64,000 nt of DNA from an archaeon (GCA_002688265.1 NZCK01000007.1:33685-97684), one strand, 5' to 3'; positions 10,768 to 22,642 are shown, numbered from the stretch's first letter. The notes: a model not told the origin generated them from the letters alone. Made by a program: numbers and translations.

Positions 10768-10877
10768 GGGACTGTAGCTCAGCGGGAGAGCGCCAGACTG
10801 AAGATGCTCAAAAATCAGTGGTTTTTGGCCAATCATCTGACATCTGGATGTCAAGGGTTCAAATCCCTTCAGTCCCA
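10768..10877 (+). tRNA. tRNA-Phe (GAA) with an intron of about 38 nt at the canonical 37/38 position. No encoded CCA.
   Basis: Acceptor gggactg/cagtccc plus discriminator A. D-arm gctc...gagc. Anticodon stem ccaga/tctgg with loop cuGAAga. The stem is interrupted by tgctcaaaaatcagtggtttttggccaatcatctgaca. T-arm aaggg-ttcaaat-ccctt. Confidence 0.8.
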
Positions 10878-10950: not shown

Positions 10951-11409
10951 TTGATAAAAATGGCAAATGAATTTATGGGAAGTTTACTCTTTGGATTAAT
11001 TGCATTAGTTGGGTTGTTAGCAATTGCATTATATGTCTATGGATCACTAGCACTAATGACTATTGCAAAACGAACTAAAACTGAAAACGCATGGCTAGCT
11101 TGGATTCCAATTGCAAACATCTACTTGATGATGAGAATTGGAAAACTGCCAACTTGGTCACTGGCACTTTGGGCACTAATTTTTGTTCCAATGCTTGGAG
11201 GACTTACTGCAGCCGGAATGAATGTGTGGTACTGGTGGATGATTGCAGAAAGACGAGGTAAAGAAGGATGGTGGGGCATCTTAATGTTAGTTCCAATTCT
11301 GAATTTGGTTTTACTAGGAATTTTAGCTTGGGGAGAAGATGAGAAGAAGCCCGCAGCAAAGAAGAAAAAGAAGGTAGCTAAGAAAAAGGTTACAACGCGC
11401 AAGAGATGA
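10951..11409 (+). CDS. Small membrane protein with a Lys-rich C-terminal tail.
   Basis: Three to four TM helices, then PAAKKKKKVAKKKVTTRKR. Confidence 0.5.
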   Translation: MIKMANEFMGSLLFGLIALVGLLAIALYVYGSLALMTIAKRTKTENAWLAWIPIANIYLMMRIGKLPTWSLALWALIFVPMLGGLTAAGMNVWYWWMIAERRGKEGWWGILMLVPILNLVLLGILAWGEDEKKPAAKKKKKVAKKKVTTRKR

Positions 11410-11458: not shown

Positions 11459-13699
11459 TTATCCTAGCGTATTCTGCAACACAACACCAGCAAATAAATT
11501 GAACAGAATAATTACAACACCTGCAATCATACAATACAAACCAACACTCCTGGTTAAAGCCTTCCCAAGCGCATAACGTTCTCCTTGCTTATCAACACCA
11601 TTCTCAATACCATTAGCAAGCACAGTTAGAATATAAGCTAACTGAACTATGTAAATTCCCACAATCACCTGAAAATGAAATGTAGGAATACCAATTCCAA
11701 AAATAGTCACAAGGCCTCCAAAACCAGTACTCTCTCCACTACTTGAAAATTGAGATAACTGAGAACTTAATTTGGTTAGTACAGTTGAAATCATAGAAGT
11801 GATTCCAACCACAATTCCGGCAATCGCAGGAGTTAAAAACGCAACTTGTGCTTTCATACTTCCAATTACTTCTGCCATCAAATCTTTTAGTCGCTCTTCA
11901 ACTCGATGAATCTCTTTCATGTACCTGCTCATTGACAGAAGAGCTTGGGCAGCAATCAAAGGCCCACGTTTAATACTCTCAACTAAAACTTTCATAGAAG
12001 ACTCAATCACTTTTGAAGGATAAGAAACAACTGCTCCTACTTTGGGATCAAATAAAGATTCCTCCAAACCCATCCCTAACTTTAGAATATTTTTTTCAGC
12101 AAGGTTAAAAAATTCGCCAGAAGTTGAACCGCGCATTGTTTCAGCAACTTTAGCAAACGCAATCTCAGCCGGCAGACCATCACCTAATCTGTTCCCTAAT
12201 TGAAATAAGGCACTAGAAAATTCTTCTTCCAATTTCTTGGTGCGGTTACGGATCGCTATCACATTCTTGCTTCTTAATGAATAGAACAATCCTATCGACA
12301 ACCCAAAAGCTAAGATTACAACTAAAGAGAGTAGAGAAGCCCCCAAACCATAAGGACCCACCAAATCAGTGTCTTCACAACTTGCAAACTCAGGTGGACA
12401 AATATAACCCATCATAGAAATAGATTGATCCTCATTGGCAATTTCAAACCCTGGATCCACTGCGTGCAAGAGTATTGGACTCATACCAATAATAAACAAA
12501 AAAGCGAATAGAGTGATCGCGAAATAAAGGGGGTTAACTGCAAACTGAAAGTTTTTCCCTAAAGGAATAATTACGTTTTCATATCTCTTCAAACCAGGAT
12601 GACTTTTTACAGGGTCAGCTCCACCATAACCACTAGGCCTTTTTGAGAGAATTGTTTTTCCCAGATAAAATACTCCTACTGGCAATGTGATGTTATATAG
12701 CAAAGAAATGTAAATTGCCATAGTTAAAGTAGAAGTATCGCTGCTACTCATGAAACTTACAACTAATGGCAAAATTACCAAACCCAAAATTGGTAGGATA
12801 ATACCAAGCATATTCAGCATGGTCATTGGAGCCTTAAGATTATGCGCGTATCTTAGCATACCTTCGTATGTTCCGTCGAGGATCACATCCAAAGATTTGT
12901 CCAGAAGAGCAACTCTTCGATCATCACTTGGTTCTAATAAAGAAGATTCAATTAAATGAAAAGCTTCCACAAAATCACTATTCCACTCTTTCCAAGTTTC
13001 AAGGTAAGTGTCTGCAGAATCTTTGATTGATGAGAACTTTCCATTCTCTAAATCCCAAAGCATTTTTCGAAAATCAAGAGAAAGTGGAGCATCTAAATGT
13101 TCAGCTGCAAAAGCAATTGCCCTTTCTAGGTTAGAAGTATGGCGCATATAAGTTACTAAATAAAAAACACTTTGCACCATTTGATTACTTGCCTGAATCC
13201 TCCATTGATCAGCAAAAAATTGAGGTATCTTTTGGAAGGCAAAAATCATGGCCATCCCAAAAAAGATACAAAAGAAAACTAGAAACATCATATTAAAAAT
13301 TGCAAACGCGATTAAAGAACCAAATACAATAAACAGCATTGGCACCATGAATGATAGAGCTATTACTCCACTTGGGGTGCAGTTAAGATGACATGTTTCA
13401 ATTTGTTTAGTTAAGGTGGCAGCTTGTTTAGCATCAACCTTAAGTTTGAAAATAGATTCTGCTTTGTTACAAGCCTTTTCATAGAATGTAAAATGAGCAG
13501 GATAAATCTCTGACTTAAACTCTGAGTATTCACGGCTACCAACTGGAGTTGCTCCGGCACCGTCAGCTGAGACGCCAACATCTCCAAATTCAGCTTTGAT
13601 CCGCTCTTTATATTTAACTAAAATATCACCATACTCTTCCTCCCCGGAATCATCCTGAACTGGCGCTAACTCATTAGGATCATTTGTTTCATCCACCAC
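11459..13699 (-). CDS. Type IV pilus / archaellum membrane platform protein (TadC/ArlJ/FlaJ-like, two T2SSF-type domains).
   Basis: 746-aa polytopic protein. Two TM clusters are each followed by an alpha-helical cytoplasmic domain of about 130 aa. The arrangement is typical of GspF/TadC-like platform proteins. Apparent GTG start. Confidence 0.55.
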   Translation of the reverse strand: MVDETNDPNELAPVQDDSGEEEYGDILVKYKERIKAEFGDVGVSADGAGATPVGSREYSEFKSEIYPAHFTFYEKACNKAESIFKLKVDAKQAATLTKQIETCHLNCTPSGVIALSFMVPMLFIVFGSLIAFAIFNMMFLVFFCIFFGMAMIFAFQKIPQFFADQWRIQASNQMVQSVFYLVTYMRHTSNLERAIAFAAEHLDAPLSLDFRKMLWDLENGKFSSIKDSADTYLETWKEWNSDFVEAFHLIESSLLEPSDDRRVALLDKSLDVILDGTYEGMLRYAHNLKAPMTMLNMLGIILPILGLVILPLVVSFMSSSDTSTLTMAIYISLLYNITLPVGVFYLGKTILSKRPSGYGGADPVKSHPGLKRYENVIIPLGKNFQFAVNPLYFAITLFAFLFIIGMSPILLHAVDPGFEIANEDQSISMMGYICPPEFASCEDTDLVGPYGLGASLLSLVVILAFGLSIGLFYSLRSKNVIAIRNRTKKLEEEFSSALFQLGNRLGDGLPAEIAFAKVAETMRGSTSGEFFNLAEKNILKLGMGLEESLFDPKVGAVVSYPSKVIESSMKVLVESIKRGPLIAAQALLSMSRYMKEIHRVEERLKDLMAEVIGSMKAQVAFLTPAIAGIVVGITSMISTVLTKLSSQLSQFSSSGESTGFGGLVTIFGIGIPTFHFQVIVGIYIVQLAYILTVLANGIENGVDKQGERYALGKALTRSVGLYCMIAGVVIILFNLFAGVVLQNTLG

Positions 13700-13809
13700 A
13701 GCATAGAATGAATGAAAAGGGGTTTAAAAATAGTTTGGTTAAAGAAGGAGTTATCTCTTAACATGAAACCCAAATATTTATCAATAGAAAGTGAGTTATA
13801 TAGGTTAAA

Positions 13810-16569
13810 ATGAGGTGGAGTAAGTTTTCTTTAGTAGTATTAATTAGTTCTCTCTTAACTCCAATCTTTGCTTATGCTTCAGTTTCTAGCATTATCTCTA
13901 ATGTATTTGATACTATAATTAGTATAGGCTCGCTATCCTTCTTAGGTTTTCCAGGAGGAGACGATATTACTTCATTCTTAAGAATACTAATATTCATTCT
14001 AACATTTACTATCTATTTTACAGTTCTGACTGCTGCAAATGGATTCTTAAAAATATTTCAAAGAAACATTGCAATTGTAATTGCACTCATCTTATCAATA
14101 ATTACAACAATCTTTATTCCATCAACAGTGATGATAGCTTCAGGTACTGCTCTTGGAACATTAGTTTCAGTAGCATTACTGGCAGCCCCACTTCTTGGAA
14201 TATTGGCTTTGATCTTTTTCTTACCTGATCGTCCATGCTGGTGGTGGTTAGTTAAGTTATTTATTGCAGTTATTCTTTATTGGGTTTCAACACAAACACA
14301 AAATTACTTGGCTGATCCTGCATTTTCTTTCTCTACAAATGTGGCTGCAAGTTTAGCAGGCTTTTGGGAATGGATACTGTTTATTGAATTCTTAATTATA
14401 TTGTATTTGATCTATAAGTTACTCACTTGTGGAGATGATGAAACCGGAATTCCACTAAATCCAAAAGAATTGTTAGATAGAATTAAAAGAATAATTAATC
14501 CGAACGCGCCTGATCCTGGACGAGATGATCCCGATGGTGAGGAAGACCATTCTCCACCACCACCTCCTAATCCAGGAGCTAAGCCACCTAATTCAAATGA
14601 AGGAGATAATCCTATCCCTCCAGATAATCCTAAACTTAATGAACCAAAACATAAACCTATCCCTGGCACGCCTTTCTATAAACCAAAAAAACCAAAACCT
14701 CCTAAAGAAAAAAGAATTAAGATTGATTTATCTCCTTGGTTTCTTTCGGTTAGAAATCAAGATGGGCTTGGGGCTTGTGCTGCCTTTGCAGGTTCATCAA
14801 TTATGGAATACATCATTAATAGAATCTCTGGTTATCTTAATTACGATTACAAATTATCTGAATTATTTCTTTGGTACAACGCAAGAGAAGATAAGAACAG
14901 CAACTCTGGAACATGGCCTGTAGATTTAATGAATGAACTTCTAAAACAAGGTGATTGTAAAGAAAAATTATGGTCATTTGAAGGTGTAACTTCAACTAAG
15001 TATTTACAAATGCCCTTACAAAATTGTTTCCAAGATGCTTTGCAACAAAGAGCACTATCTGTTAAAAATGTTTCAACAGACCCAGACGAATGGATAAGAA
15101 TTCTTCTTGATGAACATCCATTATATTTTGGAATAGGAGTTCCACAAAATTTTGGCAAAGCTTATCTCACTGGAAAACCATTATATGAAAAAATAATATG
15201 GCCAACCAAAGGTGGGCATGGAATGGTAATTGTAGGATACGATTCACATTATCCTACACCTGATGGAAGAAAAATAGAAGCATTTAAAGTTAGAAATAGT
15301 TGGGGAGAACTCTTTGGAGAAGGAGGATACATTTGGATTCCAAGAATTTTATTACGAAATATGATTAACAAACAAGGGGATACACTTTACATCATTGACG
15401 GATGGAATAACAAAAAAGGAGACAAACAACTTTACACAATCAAAGGACGAGCAGTGTTTGATGATAAAAGATTCAAAGGATTTCCAGCAGTACCAAAACA
15501 ATGGACAGGACATCAAATTGTAAAGAGTAGCAAAATTAGTGCACCAAACGATCACGCATTCAAAGTTGCAGTAATGGCACAAATTCAAGGAAGGCCTGTG
15601 TTTTTGCCTGAAGCCGAAACTGTTGTACAAACAGGACAAAACGGAATGTTTAAACTTCAATTTACAGCTGATCCAACTCAATTTCAAAAACTAACACAGT
15701 TTCCTGAAGCATTTCCTCAACTCAAAGGAGTTGATTTTTCTAAACAAGCACCAGGATTAATTGTTGTTAAGAAACCTTACATGGAAGAAAACAGTGATAT
15801 GCACCAATGGTTCTTCCATGTTGCACAATTCAAATATTCTCACGCAGGACGGGGAGGAGAAGGGCACCACGAACCAACAAATCCTAGAAGCGATATTGCT
15901 AGTAAAACAAAAATACACTTTTCAGGTCGGCCAATTCAATTTGGACCTAACCATGATACTGAAGAGAATGTAGTAATTCCAGTAATGTTCTATGAAGAGA
16001 ATAAAACTGAGAACGAAGAAGATGAAGAGAAGAAAAAACATAAAGCAAAACTAGCTCTTGAGAGAATCCATAAACATGCCAAGAAAGAGTTGGATTGGAC
16101 GATGAGAGAATCAGACTTGTTAGTTGGTTTAGAACCTTCTTTACTAGCACAAGATATAAAAGCGTTTAGGCGGTTAGATAGCAGAATAAATCAAGCTTCA
16201 AGAAGAATTTATCGCGAATTTGTTACACTTAAGAAAACAATTAGTCATGAGACAAAGTCTCTTCCTTCAGGATTAAATAAAAAATTAAGTGGCAAACTAG
16301 AACAGTTAAGTGTAGCTGAGAAGAATTTTATTTTATTCTTACAATCATCAGATCCTATTCAAACTTCAGAAAACCCCAAACAACTGTCTGTTGAAGCTGC
16401 TAAAAAATATCTACAAAAACACCATAATGACGAAAGCAAAAAACAAGAGGTTGAACAAGCATGGATTGATTTAAGTTTTAGTTTTAAAGATTTGAAGAAA
16501 TGGCTAGCAGCAATGGTAACAACACTTGAAGATGTTGTTGAGTTGAGTGGCGAAAAGAAAGCAAAATAA
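13810..16569 (+). CDS. Membrane-anchored papain-like (C1 family) cysteine peptidase with a Pro-rich linker and a long C-terminal coiled-coil region.
   Basis: N-terminal multi-TM domain, then linker PPPPPNPGAKPPNS...KPKKPKPPKEK. Peptidase core has QDGLGACAAFAG (Cys), GGHGMVIVGYD (His) and VRNSWGELFGEGGYIWIP (Asn/Trp). 919 aa. Confidence 0.65.
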   Translation: MRWSKFSLVVLISSLLTPIFAYASVSSIISNVFDTIISIGSLSFLGFPGGDDITSFLRILIFILTFTIYFTVLTAANGFLKIFQRNIAIVIALILSIITTIFIPSTVMIASGTALGTLVSVALLAAPLLGILALIFFLPDRPCWWWLVKLFIAVILYWVSTQTQNYLADPAFSFSTNVAASLAGFWEWILFIEFLIILYLIYKLLTCGDDETGIPLNPKELLDRIKRIINPNAPDPGRDDPDGEEDHSPPPPPNPGAKPPNSNEGDNPIPPDNPKLNEPKHKPIPGTPFYKPKKPKPPKEKRIKIDLSPWFLSVRNQDGLGACAAFAGSSIMEYIINRISGYLNYDYKLSELFLWYNAREDKNSNSGTWPVDLMNELLKQGDCKEKLWSFEGVTSTKYLQMPLQNCFQDALQQRALSVKNVSTDPDEWIRILLDEHPLYFGIGVPQNFGKAYLTGKPLYEKIIWPTKGGHGMVIVGYDSHYPTPDGRKIEAFKVRNSWGELFGEGGYIWIPRILLRNMINKQGDTLYIIDGWNNKKGDKQLYTIKGRAVFDDKRFKGFPAVPKQWTGHQIVKSSKISAPNDHAFKVAVMAQIQGRPVFLPEAETVVQTGQNGMFKLQFTADPTQFQKLTQFPEAFPQLKGVDFSKQAPGLIVVKKPYMEENSDMHQWFFHVAQFKYSHAGRGGEGHHEPTNPRSDIASKTKIHFSGRPIQFGPNHDTEENVVIPVMFYEENKTENEEDEEKKKHKAKLALERIHKHAKKELDWTMRESDLLVGLEPSLLAQDIKAFRRLDSRINQASRRIYREFVTLKKTISHETKSLPSGLNKKLSGKLEQLSVAEKNFILFLQSSDPIQTSENPKQLSVEAAKKYLQKHHNDESKKQEVEQAWIDLSFSFKDLKKWLAAMVTTLEDVVELSGEKKAK

Positions 16570-16607
16570 TTGTTATTAATTCTAATTATCTACACAATAA
16601 CCATAAA

Positions 16608-18932
16608 TTAAGAATCTATTCTATGCTGCCGTTCTGCTTTTCTCTTAATCACTTCATTATCTAACCAACGTTTGTATTCAAAGAATATCCTATCAGGATC
16701 TAAATGTCCACGATCTTCTAACACCTTGCCACTTAAAATATGAAACTTATCATTAGCTCTAATCACAAACTCAGCTTCAAACATATCATGATCATTGGCT
16801 GCCACTGCAGCATCTACCAAAGCTTGCTTACACTTCCCCCTTAGAACTATATTATTCCAAACAGCATCCCAGTCTCCAGCAAACTCTTTAATTGAACCTG
16901 CCATCCTCTTTAGAATTTCAGAATTACCATTGATCAAATCGTCAGTGATTTCAAGTTCGTCAGTTTTAGGATTGTAAACCATCAAATCGACAAAAGCACC
17001 TTCCTTAAGTGGATCCTCTTCCCACTGCTTTCTAATCTCAGTCACTCTTAGAACACGCTTGAGTTTCTTCATCCCACTAGCACTCCTCACTGGATTAACA
17101 TTGATAATTATATCAGTTGCCTTAAATGAAGTTCTTGGAACCCCAATATCATTAACAACACGATCGTAAACACCATAAGGGCTGGCTGCGTGAATTGTTC
17201 CAGCTACAACGTTTGCTGCAGCACCAACTCTCATTGCTTCGAAAAGAGCTATTGCTTCTTTACTACGTACTTCCCCTACAATTAATGCACTGTCCCCTAA
17301 TCTTAAGGTTGATCTGATTCCAGTTGACGCATCAACCTCACTACCTTTCTCAACTGATAATGAAGAACCAACTTTCAAAGTTTCAATATTGTATCCAAGC
17401 GCTCTTAATGACTCATTAGGAATTTCTAATGTGTCTTCTAGTGTAATAATTCGATACCTGCGCATCATTTCTACTAGCACGCTTCCAAGATAAGAAGACT
17501 TACCACTACTTCTGGTCCCTGCGATAAGAATTGTCGCGTTACCATCGATAATAAAACTTAATAATCCTGCGCATGTGGCATTCATCATCTTAAATTTTGG
17601 ACTCATATACAAAGGAAATGTCCAAGGATGATCTCTGTGCCTTCGAAATGAAAAACCAATCCCAAACGGATCTAATGGTGCAGTAACTGCACTAACACGA
17701 GAGCTAAAACCCTCTACTTTCAATTCAGTATCTAAAATGGGGTTTGCTTCATCTAGTGGCCTTCCACTAATTAGCCTTAATTTTGTTGCCCAAGAATCAA
17801 CCTCTTGCGTTGTTGGATAAACATTAGTGTAACAATCACCATAGTCTTGATGCACAATAAAAATTGGTACCTCTCCATTTGGTGAATTAATATTTACATC
17901 TTGAATTTTTGGATCAGAAAGAAAGAGTTCAATAAGACCAAAACCAACTGTGTATCTTAAAAGAGCTTTGGCCAAAGCATCGATTCTACTCTCTTTCATC
18001 TTTAACTTTTTGTGTTGACTCAAATCTAACAACATATCTTTACCAATATTGAAAAACACTTCTCGCATTCTCTGCGGATCTACAAACTCCTTTTGAGTAG
18101 GTTTGTGCTCTGAAAGAATTCGTTTGGCTGCATCCAAAAGTTCGTATTCACTCTCTGAAAAAGTCATCTCTGGCGGTGTTATATGATACAAATATTTTAT
18201 AGAGTCATCAAAACCAAAAACATTGACTTCAACCTTATCGTCCCCTTCTCCAAAAGAATAACTTTCAAGTAGATTTCCTCCGACAGGAAATTCACTTTGT
18301 AATTTAGTATACATAAAATCTGGCCGTGTACTTGGATGCAAAACATAACCATAGATTTGCCGATCACCATGCTGATAATCTTTAAGATGAGGAAACAAAT
18401 TCCTAAGAATTGTTAACTGTTCTAATTTAGCTAAGGCATCAAGTAAAATGTGCACAAATTTTGTTTGACTCGCTTTATGTTCTTCACCCACTACGTTAGA
18501 TAGTTTGATCTTTTCTTGTCGCTCTAAACGTTTTAACTCTACATACGCTGCAACTGGGTCTTCTTTAAGCCGTTTTGAGAGGATTGCTTGAAACTGAGCA
18601 AAGGCAGATCGAATATATTTCTCATGCACAGGGTCAACAACAATATGTGAGTAGAGAAATCTTTCTTCTTTGCTGAATTTGCGGTAAAGTTGGGCTAATT
18701 CACTTAGTAGTTTTACTTGTGATAAATCATAATCATATTCGCGTTTTTGCGAAAGGATAATATTAGTAATTCCAGAATTTTGTAGCAACATATCAATAAC
18801 TTTACCCATACATTGCTCGCTGTACTCAATTGAAGGAGGGAACATACACTTTTCTAGGTAAATCTTTAAAATTTTATTTTCGCCTTCGTGGTAAATATCA
18901 AAAGCGAAACATTCTTTGGTGCTAGTATCCAT
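16608..18932 (-). CDS. Type IV pilus / archaellum assembly ATPase (FlaI/ArlI-TadA/VirB11 superfamily).
   Basis: Walker A AGTRSSGKSS followed by a TLEDTLEI-type Asp box. His-box-like GTIHA. Long N-terminal domain, 774 aa. Confidence 0.75.
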   Translation of the reverse strand: MDTSTKECFAFDIYHEGENKILKIYLEKCMFPPSIEYSEQCMGKVIDMLLQNSGITNIILSQKREYDYDLSQVKLLSELAQLYRKFSKEERFLYSHIVVDPVHEKYIRSAFAQFQAILSKRLKEDPVAAYVELKRLERQEKIKLSNVVGEEHKASQTKFVHILLDALAKLEQLTILRNLFPHLKDYQHGDRQIYGYVLHPSTRPDFMYTKLQSEFPVGGNLLESYSFGEGDDKVEVNVFGFDDSIKYLYHITPPEMTFSESEYELLDAAKRILSEHKPTQKEFVDPQRMREVFFNIGKDMLLDLSQHKKLKMKESRIDALAKALLRYTVGFGLIELFLSDPKIQDVNINSPNGEVPIFIVHQDYGDCYTNVYPTTQEVDSWATKLRLISGRPLDEANPILDTELKVEGFSSRVSAVTAPLDPFGIGFSFRRHRDHPWTFPLYMSPKFKMMNATCAGLLSFIIDGNATILIAGTRSSGKSSYLGSVLVEMMRRYRIITLEDTLEIPNESLRALGYNIETLKVGSSLSVEKGSEVDASTGIRSTLRLGDSALIVGEVRSKEAIALFEAMRVGAAANVVAGTIHAASPYGVYDRVVNDIGVPRTSFKATDIIINVNPVRSASGMKKLKRVLRVTEIRKQWEEDPLKEGAFVDLMVYNPKTDELEITDDLINGNSEILKRMAGSIKEFAGDWDAVWNNIVLRGKCKQALVDAAVAANDHDMFEAEFVIRANDKFHILSGKVLEDRGHLDPDRIFFEYKRWLDNEVIKRKAERQHRIDS

Positions 18933-19045: not shown

Positions 19046-19489
19046 ATGGATTTTGGAAAGAAACCAGCAGCGCCGGCCCCTAAACAAGAATTTGATAGCG
19101 CAAAAATGTTTACATGGGCTAAAGCATTAGAATCAAAACTGAATGGACTTAGGCGAGAATTTGATCTAGTTAAAAACAATTCTACAAGATCAGGGCAAGA
19201 CACTAAACAAAATATTCAAAATATTAATAGTGAGTTAACTGAATTGCAGCATAAAGTTAGCAAGATGGATGAAAAACTAGATTTAATTGTAGCAGAATTG
19301 AAAAGGACAGCTGGAAGCGAGGAACTAGATGTTTTGAAGAAATACATTGAGTTTTGGAACCCAATGGAATTTGTAACACAAAAAGATATTGACAGGATTG
19401 TAGAACAGAAAATGCAAGATTTTAAACATAACTCTGACAGTCCCGATAAACAAGAACAAGCACAAGATATAAAAAATACAGAAGATTAG
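19046..19489 (+). CDS. Coiled-coil protein.
   Basis: 147 aa with heptad-like K/E/L periodicity. No enzymatic motif. Confidence 0.45.
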   Translation: MDFGKKPAAPAPKQEFDSAKMFTWAKALESKLNGLRREFDLVKNNSTRSGQDTKQNIQNINSELTELQHKVSKMDEKLDLIVAELKRTAGSEELDVLKKYIEFWNPMEFVTQKDIDRIVEQKMQDFKHNSDSPDKQEQAQDIKNTED

Positions 19490-19525: not shown

Positions 19526-20185
19526 ATGGCATTATTCCCAGGACAAACAGGAGCAGGAGGACATTTAGATGTGGACGCTGAAGTACACACACTTCGTTCT
19601 CAAGGACTAACAGATGATCAAATTCTCTCAGAATTAACAGCTAAAGGAGCTAAAGAACAACAAGTGATTTCTAGTTTAAGTAAATTAGGAGCGCCTGGTG
19701 CCCCAGGGATGGGTGCTGGTGGACCACCTGCTATGCCAGGAATGCCACCAAGTCCTCCAGGACAAGGTATGGGCCCTGGAATTAGTATGCCTCCTCCAAG
19801 TTCTCCTCCTACAAGCCATGGTGCTGGACCCACTGATTCTCCACAAGACCTATACGATAGAATCGAAGAAATAACTGAAGAAATGATCGATGAAAAATGG
19901 GACGATTTGATTAAAGAAGTTCGTAAAATTGTGGAATGGAAAAACTCAGTAGAATCCAAAATGCAAAAGATGGATTCTGATCTCTCTAAACTAAAAGATG
20001 ATTTTAAAATTCTGCACCAAGGTGTTATTGGTAAAGTTGAAGAATACGATAAACGAATGCAAGAAGTTGGCACTGAACTCAAAGCAGTTGGTAAAGTATT
20101 CAAAGACGTAGTTCCAGTGTTTACAGAGAATGTGAAAGAACTTCGAAGTATTACGTCCGGTATGCGAGAAGGAAAGAAAGAGTAA
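19526..20185 (+). CDS. Pro/Gly-rich low-complexity plus coiled-coil protein.
   Basis: GAPGAPGMGAGGPPAMPGMPPSPPGQGMGPG, followed by an acidic coiled coil. Confidence 0.45.
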   Translation: MALFPGQTGAGGHLDVDAEVHTLRSQGLTDDQILSELTAKGAKEQQVISSLSKLGAPGAPGMGAGGPPAMPGMPPSPPGQGMGPGISMPPPSSPPTSHGAGPTDSPQDLYDRIEEITEEMIDEKWDDLIKEVRKIVEWKNSVESKMQKMDSDLSKLKDDFKILHQGVIGKVEEYDKRMQEVGTELKAVGKVFKDVVPVFTENVKELRSITSGMREGKKE

Positions 20186-20244: not shown

Positions 20245-20655
20245 TTAAACTAACAAATTACGAGCATCAATCCACTTATTATCAACCCTAGCCCATAACT
20301 TACTAATTGAGAGAGGGTCAAACCCCACATATTTTATTCCAAGGCCATTTAAAGCCCTAGTATCAAAAATTTTACACTCAAACTCAAAAACTTTAACTGG
20401 ATGCATCTTCTGAAGTAAATCTATTATTTTTCCAAGCACCTCACCTTCTCCAATATTCTTTTCAGCATCAAATACACCTATTGATTTTACTATTGATCTG
20501 CCAGCAGGACCTTTAAACCGAAATGAAATTGTACCAACAGAAGTATTTTTCTTGCACTTTGAAGGAACTAAATAATTGTCGCCCTTGTAGCTTATTAAAT
20601 TAGGTGGAATCAATTGAAGTAAATCAAAATTGTCCCACAAAAATTGTATGATCAA
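20245..20655 (-). CDS. Hypothetical protein. It has only a TTG start and is in frame with 20683..20955.
   Basis: No ATG before Met at residue 100-plus. The frame is open all the way up to the TGA of the upstream ORF. Confidence 0.3.
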   Translation of the reverse strand: MIIQFLWDNFDLLQLIPPNLISYKGDNYLVPSKCKKNTSVGTISFRFKGPAGRSIVKSIGVFDAEKNIGEGEVLGKIIDLLQKMHPVKVFEFECKIFDTRALNGLGIKYVGFDPLSISKLWARVDNKWIDARNLLV

Positions 20656-20682
20656 CTGACCATTTGTTTCAGCATCTAAATC

Positions 20683-20955
20683 TCACTCTTTTGGATTCAA
20701 ATCAGCTCTAACTCTCACAAGCATTGGATATCCTTTCATCTTATTTTCTCGTTTTATGAACCTTAAATGCTCTATTGCTTGTTTTCTTGTAGTCCACATA
20801 TAAAACCCAGTACCCTGCCCATGTCCTAAAGCCCTGCTTGGATTAATTCCCTCTTTAACAAAAATTTTTAGATTCTCATTATTTTCTCCTGTACAAGTTG
20901 CATGATACAAAGAGTAAGGATGCTTTGGAATAAATTGAAATGCCATTGAAATCAT
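20683..20955 (-). CDS. Hypothetical protein. It may be the N-terminal part of a gene continuing in-frame into 20245..20655 across a TGA.
   Basis: 90-aa ORF ending in TGA at 20683-20685. The next ORF is in the same frame 27 nt downstream. Confidence 0.35.
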   Translation of the reverse strand: MISMAFQFIPKHPYSLYHATCTGENNENLKIFVKEGINPSRALGHGQGTGFYMWTTRKQAIEHLRFIKRENKMKGYPMLVRVRADLNPKE

Positions 20956-22072: not shown

Positions 22073-22642
22073 TCACCACTTCTTCTCAAACATCTTTCCA
22101 AAAGATTTCATGAAATTTTCTCCCTTAGATTTGTCTTTATCTGGATCACGGACAATGAACCACACTATTAATCCAAAGACTAAAATTATTATTAACAATT
22201 CCGTGACTTCACTACTCCACCAACCAAAAATATCATAAGGTCCAGTCCAGAGTCCTAAGGAGGCTCCGAATACATAAGCTACAAAACCAATAGAAACTAT
22301 TGCAATTAATGGAGCTGCAGCTTTGGCAAAATCTGTTCCAAATATACCCATCAATAAAAGTAACATAATTGCAGCAACAGAAATTAGAGAAATACTAGGT
22401 AAGGCGTTATTCATTACATCAACAGGGTCATATCCTAAAGGATAATTTCCAGTAATATGTGGTACCACAAACAGTAAGGCCAGAGTTAAAGCAATTACAA
22501 CTGAAAAATTCTTATTATCTTTAAACAGTGGCATTTTTGTTGCCACAGCATAGACAATTGTAAACACCAACAAGAATGGTAATAGAAAATCAACTACCCC
22601 CAAGTTTTGAAATAATTGTGCTAAATTTGAAAATGTTGCCAT
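22073..22642 (-). CDS. Paralogous membrane protein, copy 2 of a tandem triplet.
   Basis: MATFSNLAQLFQNLGVVDFLLPFLLVFTIVYAV. Same length class as its neighbours. Confidence 0.55.
   Translation of the reverse strand: MATFSNLAQLFQNLGVVDFLLPFLLVFTIVYAVATKMPLFKDNKNFSVVIALTLALLFVVPHITGNYPLGYDPVDVMNNALPSISLISVAAIMLLLLMGIFGTDFAKAAAPLIAIVSIGFVAYVFGASLGLWTGPYDIFGWWSSEVTELLIIILVFGLIVWFIVRDPDKDKSKGENFMKSFGKMFEKKW

Follow-up and report, generated by a model that had tools for sequence, protein, structure and literature searches.

A predicted membrane-anchored papain-family peptidase encoded beside a conserved secretion ATPase in a DPANN archaeon, and the modular membrane family to which it probably belongs

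In some Euryarchaeota, type IV pilus (T4P) loci are linked to papain-fold 'surface peptidases' belonging to the transglutaminase family (arCOG02164, arCOG09555, arCOG03450), enzymes whose linkage has been termed 'strong' and whose role is not known (Makarova et al. 2016, PMC4858521). The same study reported ATPases of nanoarchaea for which no pilins could be identified, and cytoplasmic subunits of coiled-coil type. Papain-family (C1A) peptidases, both multidomain and single-domain, have been recorded in DPANN archaea, the multidomain forms being left unanalysed (Kordis & Turk 2023, PMC10380794). Here we describe a 919-amino-acid (aa) protein with a C1A domain that is encoded on a 64,000-nucleotide stretch of archaeal DNA (GCA_002688265.1, NZCK01000007.1:33685-97684; the whole stretch is called the window below), where its gene lies between those of a putative platform protein and a secretion-superfamily ATPase. 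We favour the reading that this protein is a membrane-anchored C1A peptidase facing the cytoplasm, that it is one cargo form of a modular membrane family, and that its gene was relocated, within one clade, to a position beside a separate core machine. Taken as a whole, we consider this account moderately probable. An earlier note on this DNA had regarded such a protease inside a pilus assembly locus as not a standard archaeal arrangement; the T4P-linked papain-fold peptidases temper that view, but they belong to a different family (PMC4858521).

The GC content of the window is ~35%. Homologues of the neighbouring genes carry Woesearchaeota or Nanoarchaeota labels, and thus we place the host among the DPANN archaea of the Woesearchaeota/Nanoarchaeota group. 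The protease sequence is publicly deposited as 'hypothetical protein CL619_00935 [archaeon]', from Tara material. Our open reading frame (ORF) calls returned the three genes with exactly the coordinates, strands and lengths given in the earlier note. They are listed here with the parts of the protease, in which the N-terminal transmembrane (TM) module is distinguished from the regions that follow it.

11459-13699, minus strand: putative TadC/FlaJ-type platform, a polytopic membrane protein of 746 aa; conserved core gene of Woesearchaeota/Nanoarchaeota
13700-13809, no strand: divergent intergenic region between platform and protease genes, 110 bp; junction seen only in the window
13810-16569, plus strand: protease, 919 aa (Peptidase_C1)
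13810-14442, plus strand: protease residues 1-211, the TM module, comprising a signal-peptide-like segment, an amphipathic helix and five predicted TM helices (from alignments)
14527-14715, plus strand: Pro/Lys-rich segment, residues ~240-302, directly before the catalytic domain (from conservation)
14716-15369, plus strand: Peptidase C1A catalytic domain, residues 303-520 (Pfam, PDB, alignment)
15385-15984, plus strand: beta-rich domain of no recognised fold, residues 526-725 (alignment, low-confidence models)
16024-16551, plus strand: C-terminal helical, coiled-coil-like region, residues 739-914, poorly conserved (AlphaFold2 model, alignment)
16608-18932, minus strand: secretion-superfamily ATPase of FlaI/TadA/GspE2 type, 774 aa (Pfam, NCBIfam, PDB)

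By sequence, the 919-aa protein belongs to the papain family (C1A) of cysteine peptidases; its active site looks intact, and it is predicted to be catalytically competent. Peptidase_C1 (PF00112) matches residues 313-512 with E=2.9e-11 and 44.3 bits, the curated cutoff being 20.7, and Peptidase_C1 and C1_2 are the only Pfam families matched in the protein. The solved structure closest to it in sequence is that of xylellain (3OIS), which aligns over residues 303-517 (E=3.9e-15) and covers the Q, C, H and N. The Gln, Cys, His and Asn follow one another in the order expected for C1A: Q317 (codon 14758-60), C323 (14776-78), H470 (15217-19) and N496 (15295-97). All four, together with Trp498, are invariant in an alignment of 11 full-length homologues that share 36-73% identity. 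The complete C1 core described earlier therefore stands, its quoted motifs included, and because the active-site residues do not vary among the 11 homologues we do not regard the protease as a dead paralogue, an outcome that the earlier note had allowed for. Pfam detected neither I29 or another inhibitor propeptide domain nor a transglutaminase-core domain in the protein.

AlphaFold2 was run on the full-length protein (11 sequences) and on residues 300-740 (10 sequences); the models have low confidence, with predicted local distance difference test (pLDDT) values of 54 and 53, and were used for helix counting. When the residue 300-740 model was searched with Foldseek, the top 50 hits were all C1A peptidases (cathepsins, ficin, xylellain), at target TM-scores of just 0.31-0.50, the model being poor.

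In place of a propeptide, the C1 domain is preceded by the Pro/Lys-rich segment, in which P249, P251, P252, K258, P259, G265, D266, P268, P270 and other positions are invariant among the 11 homologues. Being conserved, this segment is presumably not just a floppy linker. Proteins of unrelated architecture (L013-L017, L019 and L029) likewise have a Pro-rich segment ahead of the C1 domain. Downstream of the catalytic domain, the beta-rich domain carries invariant GRGGE (680-684) and SGRPI (705-709) motifs, and gave no match in Pfam, among PDB sequences or in the fold search. The C-terminal helices were modelled at pLDDT 70-85, and their sequence conservation is low. Thus all three further features noticed earlier are present: a polytopic N-terminus, a Pro-rich segment and a helical C-terminus, the last being known from a low-confidence model.

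The N-terminal TM module marks out a previously unannotated modular family of Woesearchaeota/Nanoarchaeota (DPANN-restricted) that occurs fused or split, and of which the protease is one cargo variant. Residues 9-211 of the protease match many smaller genes in distant loci (BLAST, E 1e-8 to 1e-25), among them tandem paralogues of 181, ~245, ~370 and ~535 aa. An 18-copy alignment of the paralogues has invariant R58, F66, F102-x-P104, A110-x-G112 and T117, with R58 lying inside the second helix; the external amphipathic helix and loops are also conserved. Exhaustive profile searching with the module retrieved 528 clusters at E<=1e-3, of which 230 reach E<=1e-10. Among 150 listed clusters the lengths range from ~117 to 913 aa and group near 165-190, 370-500, 530-670 and 874-913 aa. 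All members that carry a name are Woesearchaeota or Nanoarchaeota. The module has no relative in Pfam, in PDB (profile search) or in PHROG, and PADLOC returned coiled-coil noise only (ZorA, LmuB, DndD and PbeC, E ~1e-3). Scans of IMG/VR with the TM-module profile and with a C1+beta profile found no relatives; with these scans empty, a viral origin is unsupported.

The C-terminal regions joined to the module vary: besides the C1 cassette there are coiled coils, PT-repeat linkers bearing small beta domains, and a set of three CarboxypepD_reg repeats. Alignment with hhalign detected no homology between the helical C-terminal region of the protease and the C-terminal domains of paralogues. The notion of the protease as such a paralogue, into which a C1 cassette was inserted, is therefore unproven.

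In the tandem arrays, two abutting genes often encode the module, the first of ~181 aa and ending after the fifth hydrophobic segment, the second of 206-290 aa. One protease orthologue (L005 9470-12223, equal to L011 9080-11833) is itself divided by an in-frame stop into a 152-aa TM-module ORF and a 754-aa ORF. The latter begins before the last TM helix, so that the break falls in the same external loop as in the two-gene paralogues; it could be natural or an assembly error. In four distant genomes (L001, L003, L006, L007), variable tandem arrays of split and fused TM-module genes lie between S19e and L35Ae, interleaved with Bro-N genes, and the L007 array also holds a HEPN gene adjoining a nucleotidyltransferase-like gene. 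In the window, the S19e/L31e/Cbf5 cluster is at 42.8-44.9 kb and has no TM-module array beside it. Separately, the Cbf5/TruB pseudouridine synthase gene of L006 (420-2909, minus strand) contains an intein with a LAGLIDADG endonuclease and encodes 829 aa, against 312 aa in L001.

The earlier note had described the protease as surface-tethered. Its anchoring in the membrane holds: the N-terminus, with MRWSK ahead of a hydrophobic core and AYA|S after it, resembles a Sec signal peptide, and is followed by five TM helices, making six hydrophobic segments. The side on which the catalytic domain lies is another matter, and we consider it likely that the C1 domain faces the cytoplasm and not the cell surface. 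In proteins where all six segments were detected, the loops on the side of the N-terminus carry 7-13 lysine plus arginine (K+R) residues and those of the opposite side 0-2, and from this positive-inside bias the region after the last helix would be cytoplasmic. TM-module paralogues start with a signal peptide or a lipobox, in some cases followed by a ~100-aa Ser/Thr/Pro-rich extension. The second-gene partners of split forms begin with a short acidic tail, from which a single TM helix leads into a K/R-rich coiled coil. K/R residues number 0-1 ahead of this helix and 4-9 behind it, the pattern of an N-out/C-in anchor.

Relatives of the catalytic domain point in the same direction. A DPANN protein with a Pro-rich segment and a C1 domain (L017) has neither a TM helix nor a signal peptide. 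A two-TM hairpin, with RRRGRS or GRRRP after its second helix, occurs in the C1 proteins of L018, L019, L023 and L029. In L015 the C1 domain precedes an aldo/keto reductase domain (4.7e-24; 807-aa protein truncated by the contig, L015 3-2426), and in L019 a FliG_M/MgtE_N domain (7e-18; 1833-aa protein, L019 9371-14872). As these fusion partners are cytoplasmic domain types, they too argue for a C1 domain on the inside. Both fusions are unusual for a papain-family peptidase.

The protease and ATPase genes are convergent, with a 38-bp gap, and so are not co-transcribed. This tail-to-tail pair is kept in five of five close genomes (the window, L004, L005/L011, L069 and L070), among which protease identity is 59-73%. 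The gene upstream of the protease changes: it is the platform in the window only, TrmB in L005 and L069, and NUDIX in L004 and L070, and in L005 three genes separate platform from protease. In the sister genome L008, where the platform is 76% identical, TrmB and the ATPase abut with a 20-bp gap and there is no protease. No ATPase lies within 8 kb of the platform genes in L009 and L010, both Woesearchaeota, and these loci also lack the protease. The four distant orthologues (L001, L003, L006, L007; 36-42% identity) lie between S19e/L31e and L35Ae, with neither ATPase nor platform within 10 kb, and neither gene was next to the other archaeal C1-domain relatives found in species-representative genomes.

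A protease that forms a functional unit with a pilus locus, as proposed in the earlier note, is at odds with this gene order, since its adjacency to the platform is unique to the window, L008 does without it, and in the four distant genomes it is unlinked, an outcome that the earlier note had named as refuting. The simplest reading is that the protease came to lie next to the ATPase by a rearrangement within one small clade, and is not a conserved pilus component. Its persistence there in the close genomes is as expected from common ancestry of the synteny block. Compared with L004/L005, the ATPase and platform are 87-90% identical and the protease 59-60%. We considered and dropped the idea that the protease evolves unusually fast: its value is similar to the 52-71% of ordinary neighbours (GNAT 52%, UDG 53%, DUF5684 63%, RNR 71%), and the genes that stand out by their conservation are those of the ATPase and platform.

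The FlaI/TadA-like character of the ATPase is well founded. It matches Pfam T2SSE (E=7e-14) and the NCBIfam families FlaI (1e-35) and TadA (6e-30), and, among PDB sequences, A. fulgidus GspE2 (2OAP, 2.5e-29), FlaI (3.8e-15) and CpaF (9e-15). Walker A (GTRSSGKS) is at residue 472, LEDTLE, IVGEVR and GTIHA are present, and the Asp, Walker B and His boxes are intact. The alignment to 2OAP starts at query residue 213, leaving an N-terminal extension of ~190-210 aa without detectable relatives. Thus the unusual length noticed earlier was correctly seen, and it is a trait of the whole ATPase family, as the orthologues in L004, L005 and L008 have 769-780 aa.

For the 746-aa protein, the earlier assignment as a TadC/ArlJ-like platform finds weaker backing; it is likely but not proven to be a FlaJ/TadC-type platform, as judged from its layout and its homologues. 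The layout fits, with nine hydrophobic segments and two soluble regions of ~150 aa. The window protein has no Pfam or NCBIfam match at E<=0.1, T2SSF reaching it weakly at E=5 (residues 500-616); T2SSF matches 7 of 21 homologues (best E=3.5e-4), and two members of the family are called TadB by JGI. A profile of the family found no match among PDB sequences, and hhalign of the N-terminal against the C-terminal half detected no repeat. The protein has more than 2700 homologues, with 63-92% identity among the 120 best, and mean column identity in the family is 73%.

Two heuristic scans for class III signal peptides over all ORFs of the 64 kb found no pilin-like genes, although atypical pilins could escape them; what the scans returned was just internal fragments of other proteins. 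Nor do the small genes that adjoin the platform gene of L004, L005 and L008 resemble pilins. The pilins that the earlier note had proposed to look for were thus found neither in the window nor beside the platform genes examined.

In the reading we prefer, the signal-peptide-like segment and five TM helices would anchor the protease in the cell membrane, and the Pro/Lys-rich segment, C1 domain, beta domain and helical tail would all lie in the cytoplasm after the last helix. The same TM module would be joined to varied cytoplasmic C-terminal regions, either in one polypeptide or in two genes split at the last external loop. In an ancestor of the clade, the protease gene would have moved or been inserted between the TrmB gene and the 3' end of the ATPase gene; one further local change would have left it flanked by platform and ATPase in the window, where the TrmB gene is also missing. 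The ATPase and platform would form a separate, far more conserved core machine. The catalytic domain presumably acts at the inner face of the membrane on cytoplasmic or membrane-proximal proteins, with the Pro-rich segment either acting as a rigid spacer or, in the manner of a prosegment, covering the active site, and the helical tail mediating oligomerisation, self-association or partner binding.

Several observations weigh against this account. The orientation rests on hydropathy, the positive-inside rule and comparative architecture, and both structure models are poor (pLDDT 54 and 53). Domains that are usually extracellular occur in the family, CarboxypepD_reg in a paralogue (P0233) and PKD in a relative (L039), and P0272 has (PTPPG)n linkers. 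The K/P-rich segment resembles a TonB-like periplasm-spanning rod. C143 and C207, in the membrane part, are invariant across protease orthologues and fall on the predicted cytoplasmic face, where a disulfide would be unexpected. Finally, the protease adjoins the ATPase in all five close genomes, and a clade-specific functional tie is possible. Some of these points, and a precedent, speak for a protease displayed at the surface on a Pro-rich stalk, which would work with the pilus machine and trim pilins or attack surface proteins of a host or partner: adjacency to the ATPase in the five close genomes, a TonB-like linker rich in K and P, paralogues bearing CarboxypepD_reg or PT-repeat linkers, and the precedent of transglutaminase-family peptidases linked to euryarchaeal T4P loci (PMC4858521). 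We regard this as quite improbable, because positive-inside counts, split-gene partners, TM-less relatives and fusions to cytoplasmic domains put the C1 domain inside, and with the domain so placed, cutting of host or partner surface proteins is unlikely. The gene is also unlinked in four distant genomes and absent from the L008, L009 and L010 loci, no pilin gene was found in the window or adjoining the platform genes examined, and a convergent pair is not co-transcribed.

A cytoplasmic protease could instead have been recruited in this clade to the ATPase/platform machine, for example to cleave the N-terminal extension of the ATPase or the coiled-coil proteins encoded beside it. Protease and machine would then meet on the same face of the membrane, and their adjacency has outlasted protease divergence to 59-73% identity in five genomes, the ATPase side remaining constant as the upstream neighbour changed. 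The genes nevertheless converge across 38 bp, the block beyond the ATPase is equally syntenic, so that adjacency may be plain inheritance, and L008 has the same machine without the protease; we consider recruitment unlikely. Similarly doubtful is the idea that the TM-module family serves anti-virus conflict or host interaction as a set of membrane sensors or anchors whose cytoplasmic effectors can be exchanged, the protease being one such effector, released or activated by an external cue. The variable tandem arrays at one site (S19e to L35Ae) with Bro-N and HEPN/nucleotidyltransferase-like genes, the swappable cargo in split and fused forms, and the conserved external amphipathic helix and loops would all suit such sensors, but neither PADLOC nor PHROG gave a real match, IMG/VR gave none, and the protease is not unusually fast-evolving relative to ordinary neighbours (52-71%). 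The two ideas can be combined in a speculative form, to which we give slightly less credence than to either: the module would be a DPANN-specific outside-in sensor or anchor, maintained in hypervariable arrays with interchangeable effectors, and a protease copy captured beside the ATPase would regulate the machine by proteolysis at the inner face. Known cargo in that scheme would include, besides the papain-like protease, an aldo/keto reductase, beta-sandwich repeats and long coiled coils.

The following features surround the three genes in the window.

10768-10877, plus strand: tRNA, 110 nt, presumably intron-containing (Rfam, 63 bits)
10951-11409, plus strand: DUF5684 small membrane protein with a poly-lysine C-terminal tail, directly downstream of the platform gene
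19046-19489 and 19526-20185, plus strand: two soluble coiled-coil proteins of 147 and 219 aa; adjoin the ATPase in relatives
20245-20955, minus strand: two small adjacent ORFs of 136 and 90 aa
21046-23287, minus strand: DUF8292-like protein of 127 aa plus three polytopic membrane proteins, paralogues of 183-189 aa; conserved synteny block with the ATPase

Orthologues of both coiled-coil genes adjoin the ATPase in L004, L005 and L008. The 219-aa protein has a Gly/Pro/Met-rich middle, and neither protein has a family match, Pfam hits being at noise level only; they may be cytoplasmic accessory subunits of the ATPase machine. The three membrane paralogues share an N-terminal 'LLPFLLVFT' helix and are not pilins. 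For the two ORFs at 20245-20955, neither L004 nor L005 has a counterpart and Pfam gives no match; they look like a local insertion or a disrupted gene within an otherwise conserved block. The DUF5684 gene has an orthologue in L005. ARAGORN missed the 110-nt tRNA that Rfam detects, and called a tRNA-Ile(aat) at 22139-22228 (minus strand), inside the ORF 22073-22642, that lacks Rfam support and is probably false.

Woesearchaeota and their DPANN relatives are uncultivated, and a large part of their proteome lacks annotation. Should the topology proposed here hold, surface or host-attack factors are not the group in which to list this protease, which alters how such loci are read in surveys of DPANN genomes. 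The main interest of the locus is an unannotated modular membrane family, together with an unusually conserved ATPase/platform pair without nearby pilins. The TM module is the more useful product: it spans 528 clusters without a Pfam, PDB or PHROG relative and carries swappable cargo in fused and split forms, and as a defined family with a conserved intramembrane Arg and a clear split point it can be tested for roles in assembly, signalling or proteolysis. The ATPase and platform, highly conserved and without nearby pilins, deserve attention as a core machine.

We found no description in the literature of an architecture that combines the TM module with Pro-rich, C1, beta and coiled-coil regions, and neither this architecture nor the module is described in the survey of Kordis & Turk 2023 (PMC10380794). 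Xylellain is the best solved relative of the catalytic domain and lacks the papain disulfide pattern, and the window domain has just three Cys; with ~290 residues, xylellain differs in having no polytopic membrane module, Pro/Lys-rich segment, beta domain or coiled-coil tail. Unlike cathepsin-L-like C1A peptidases, which typically have an I29 propeptide and are secreted as zymogens, the window protease has no I29 domain and is predicted to be cytoplasmic. The ATPase and platform resemble other archaeal ATPase and FlaJ/TadC pairs (2OAP; FlaI 4II7; PMC4858521) in the aligned ATPase core, the platform layout and a weak T2SSF match, and coiled-coil accessory genes adjoin the ATPase here as in some archaeal systems described (PMC4858521). 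They differ from those pairs in the ~200-aa extension of the ATPase, in that the genes do not form an operon and are often unlinked in relatives, and in that no pilins were found. The transglutaminase-family peptidases of T4P loci are likewise papain-fold cysteine peptidases encoded beside archaeal T4P genes, whereas the window protease is of the C1A family, is predicted to face the cytoplasm, and has a linkage confined to one small clade.

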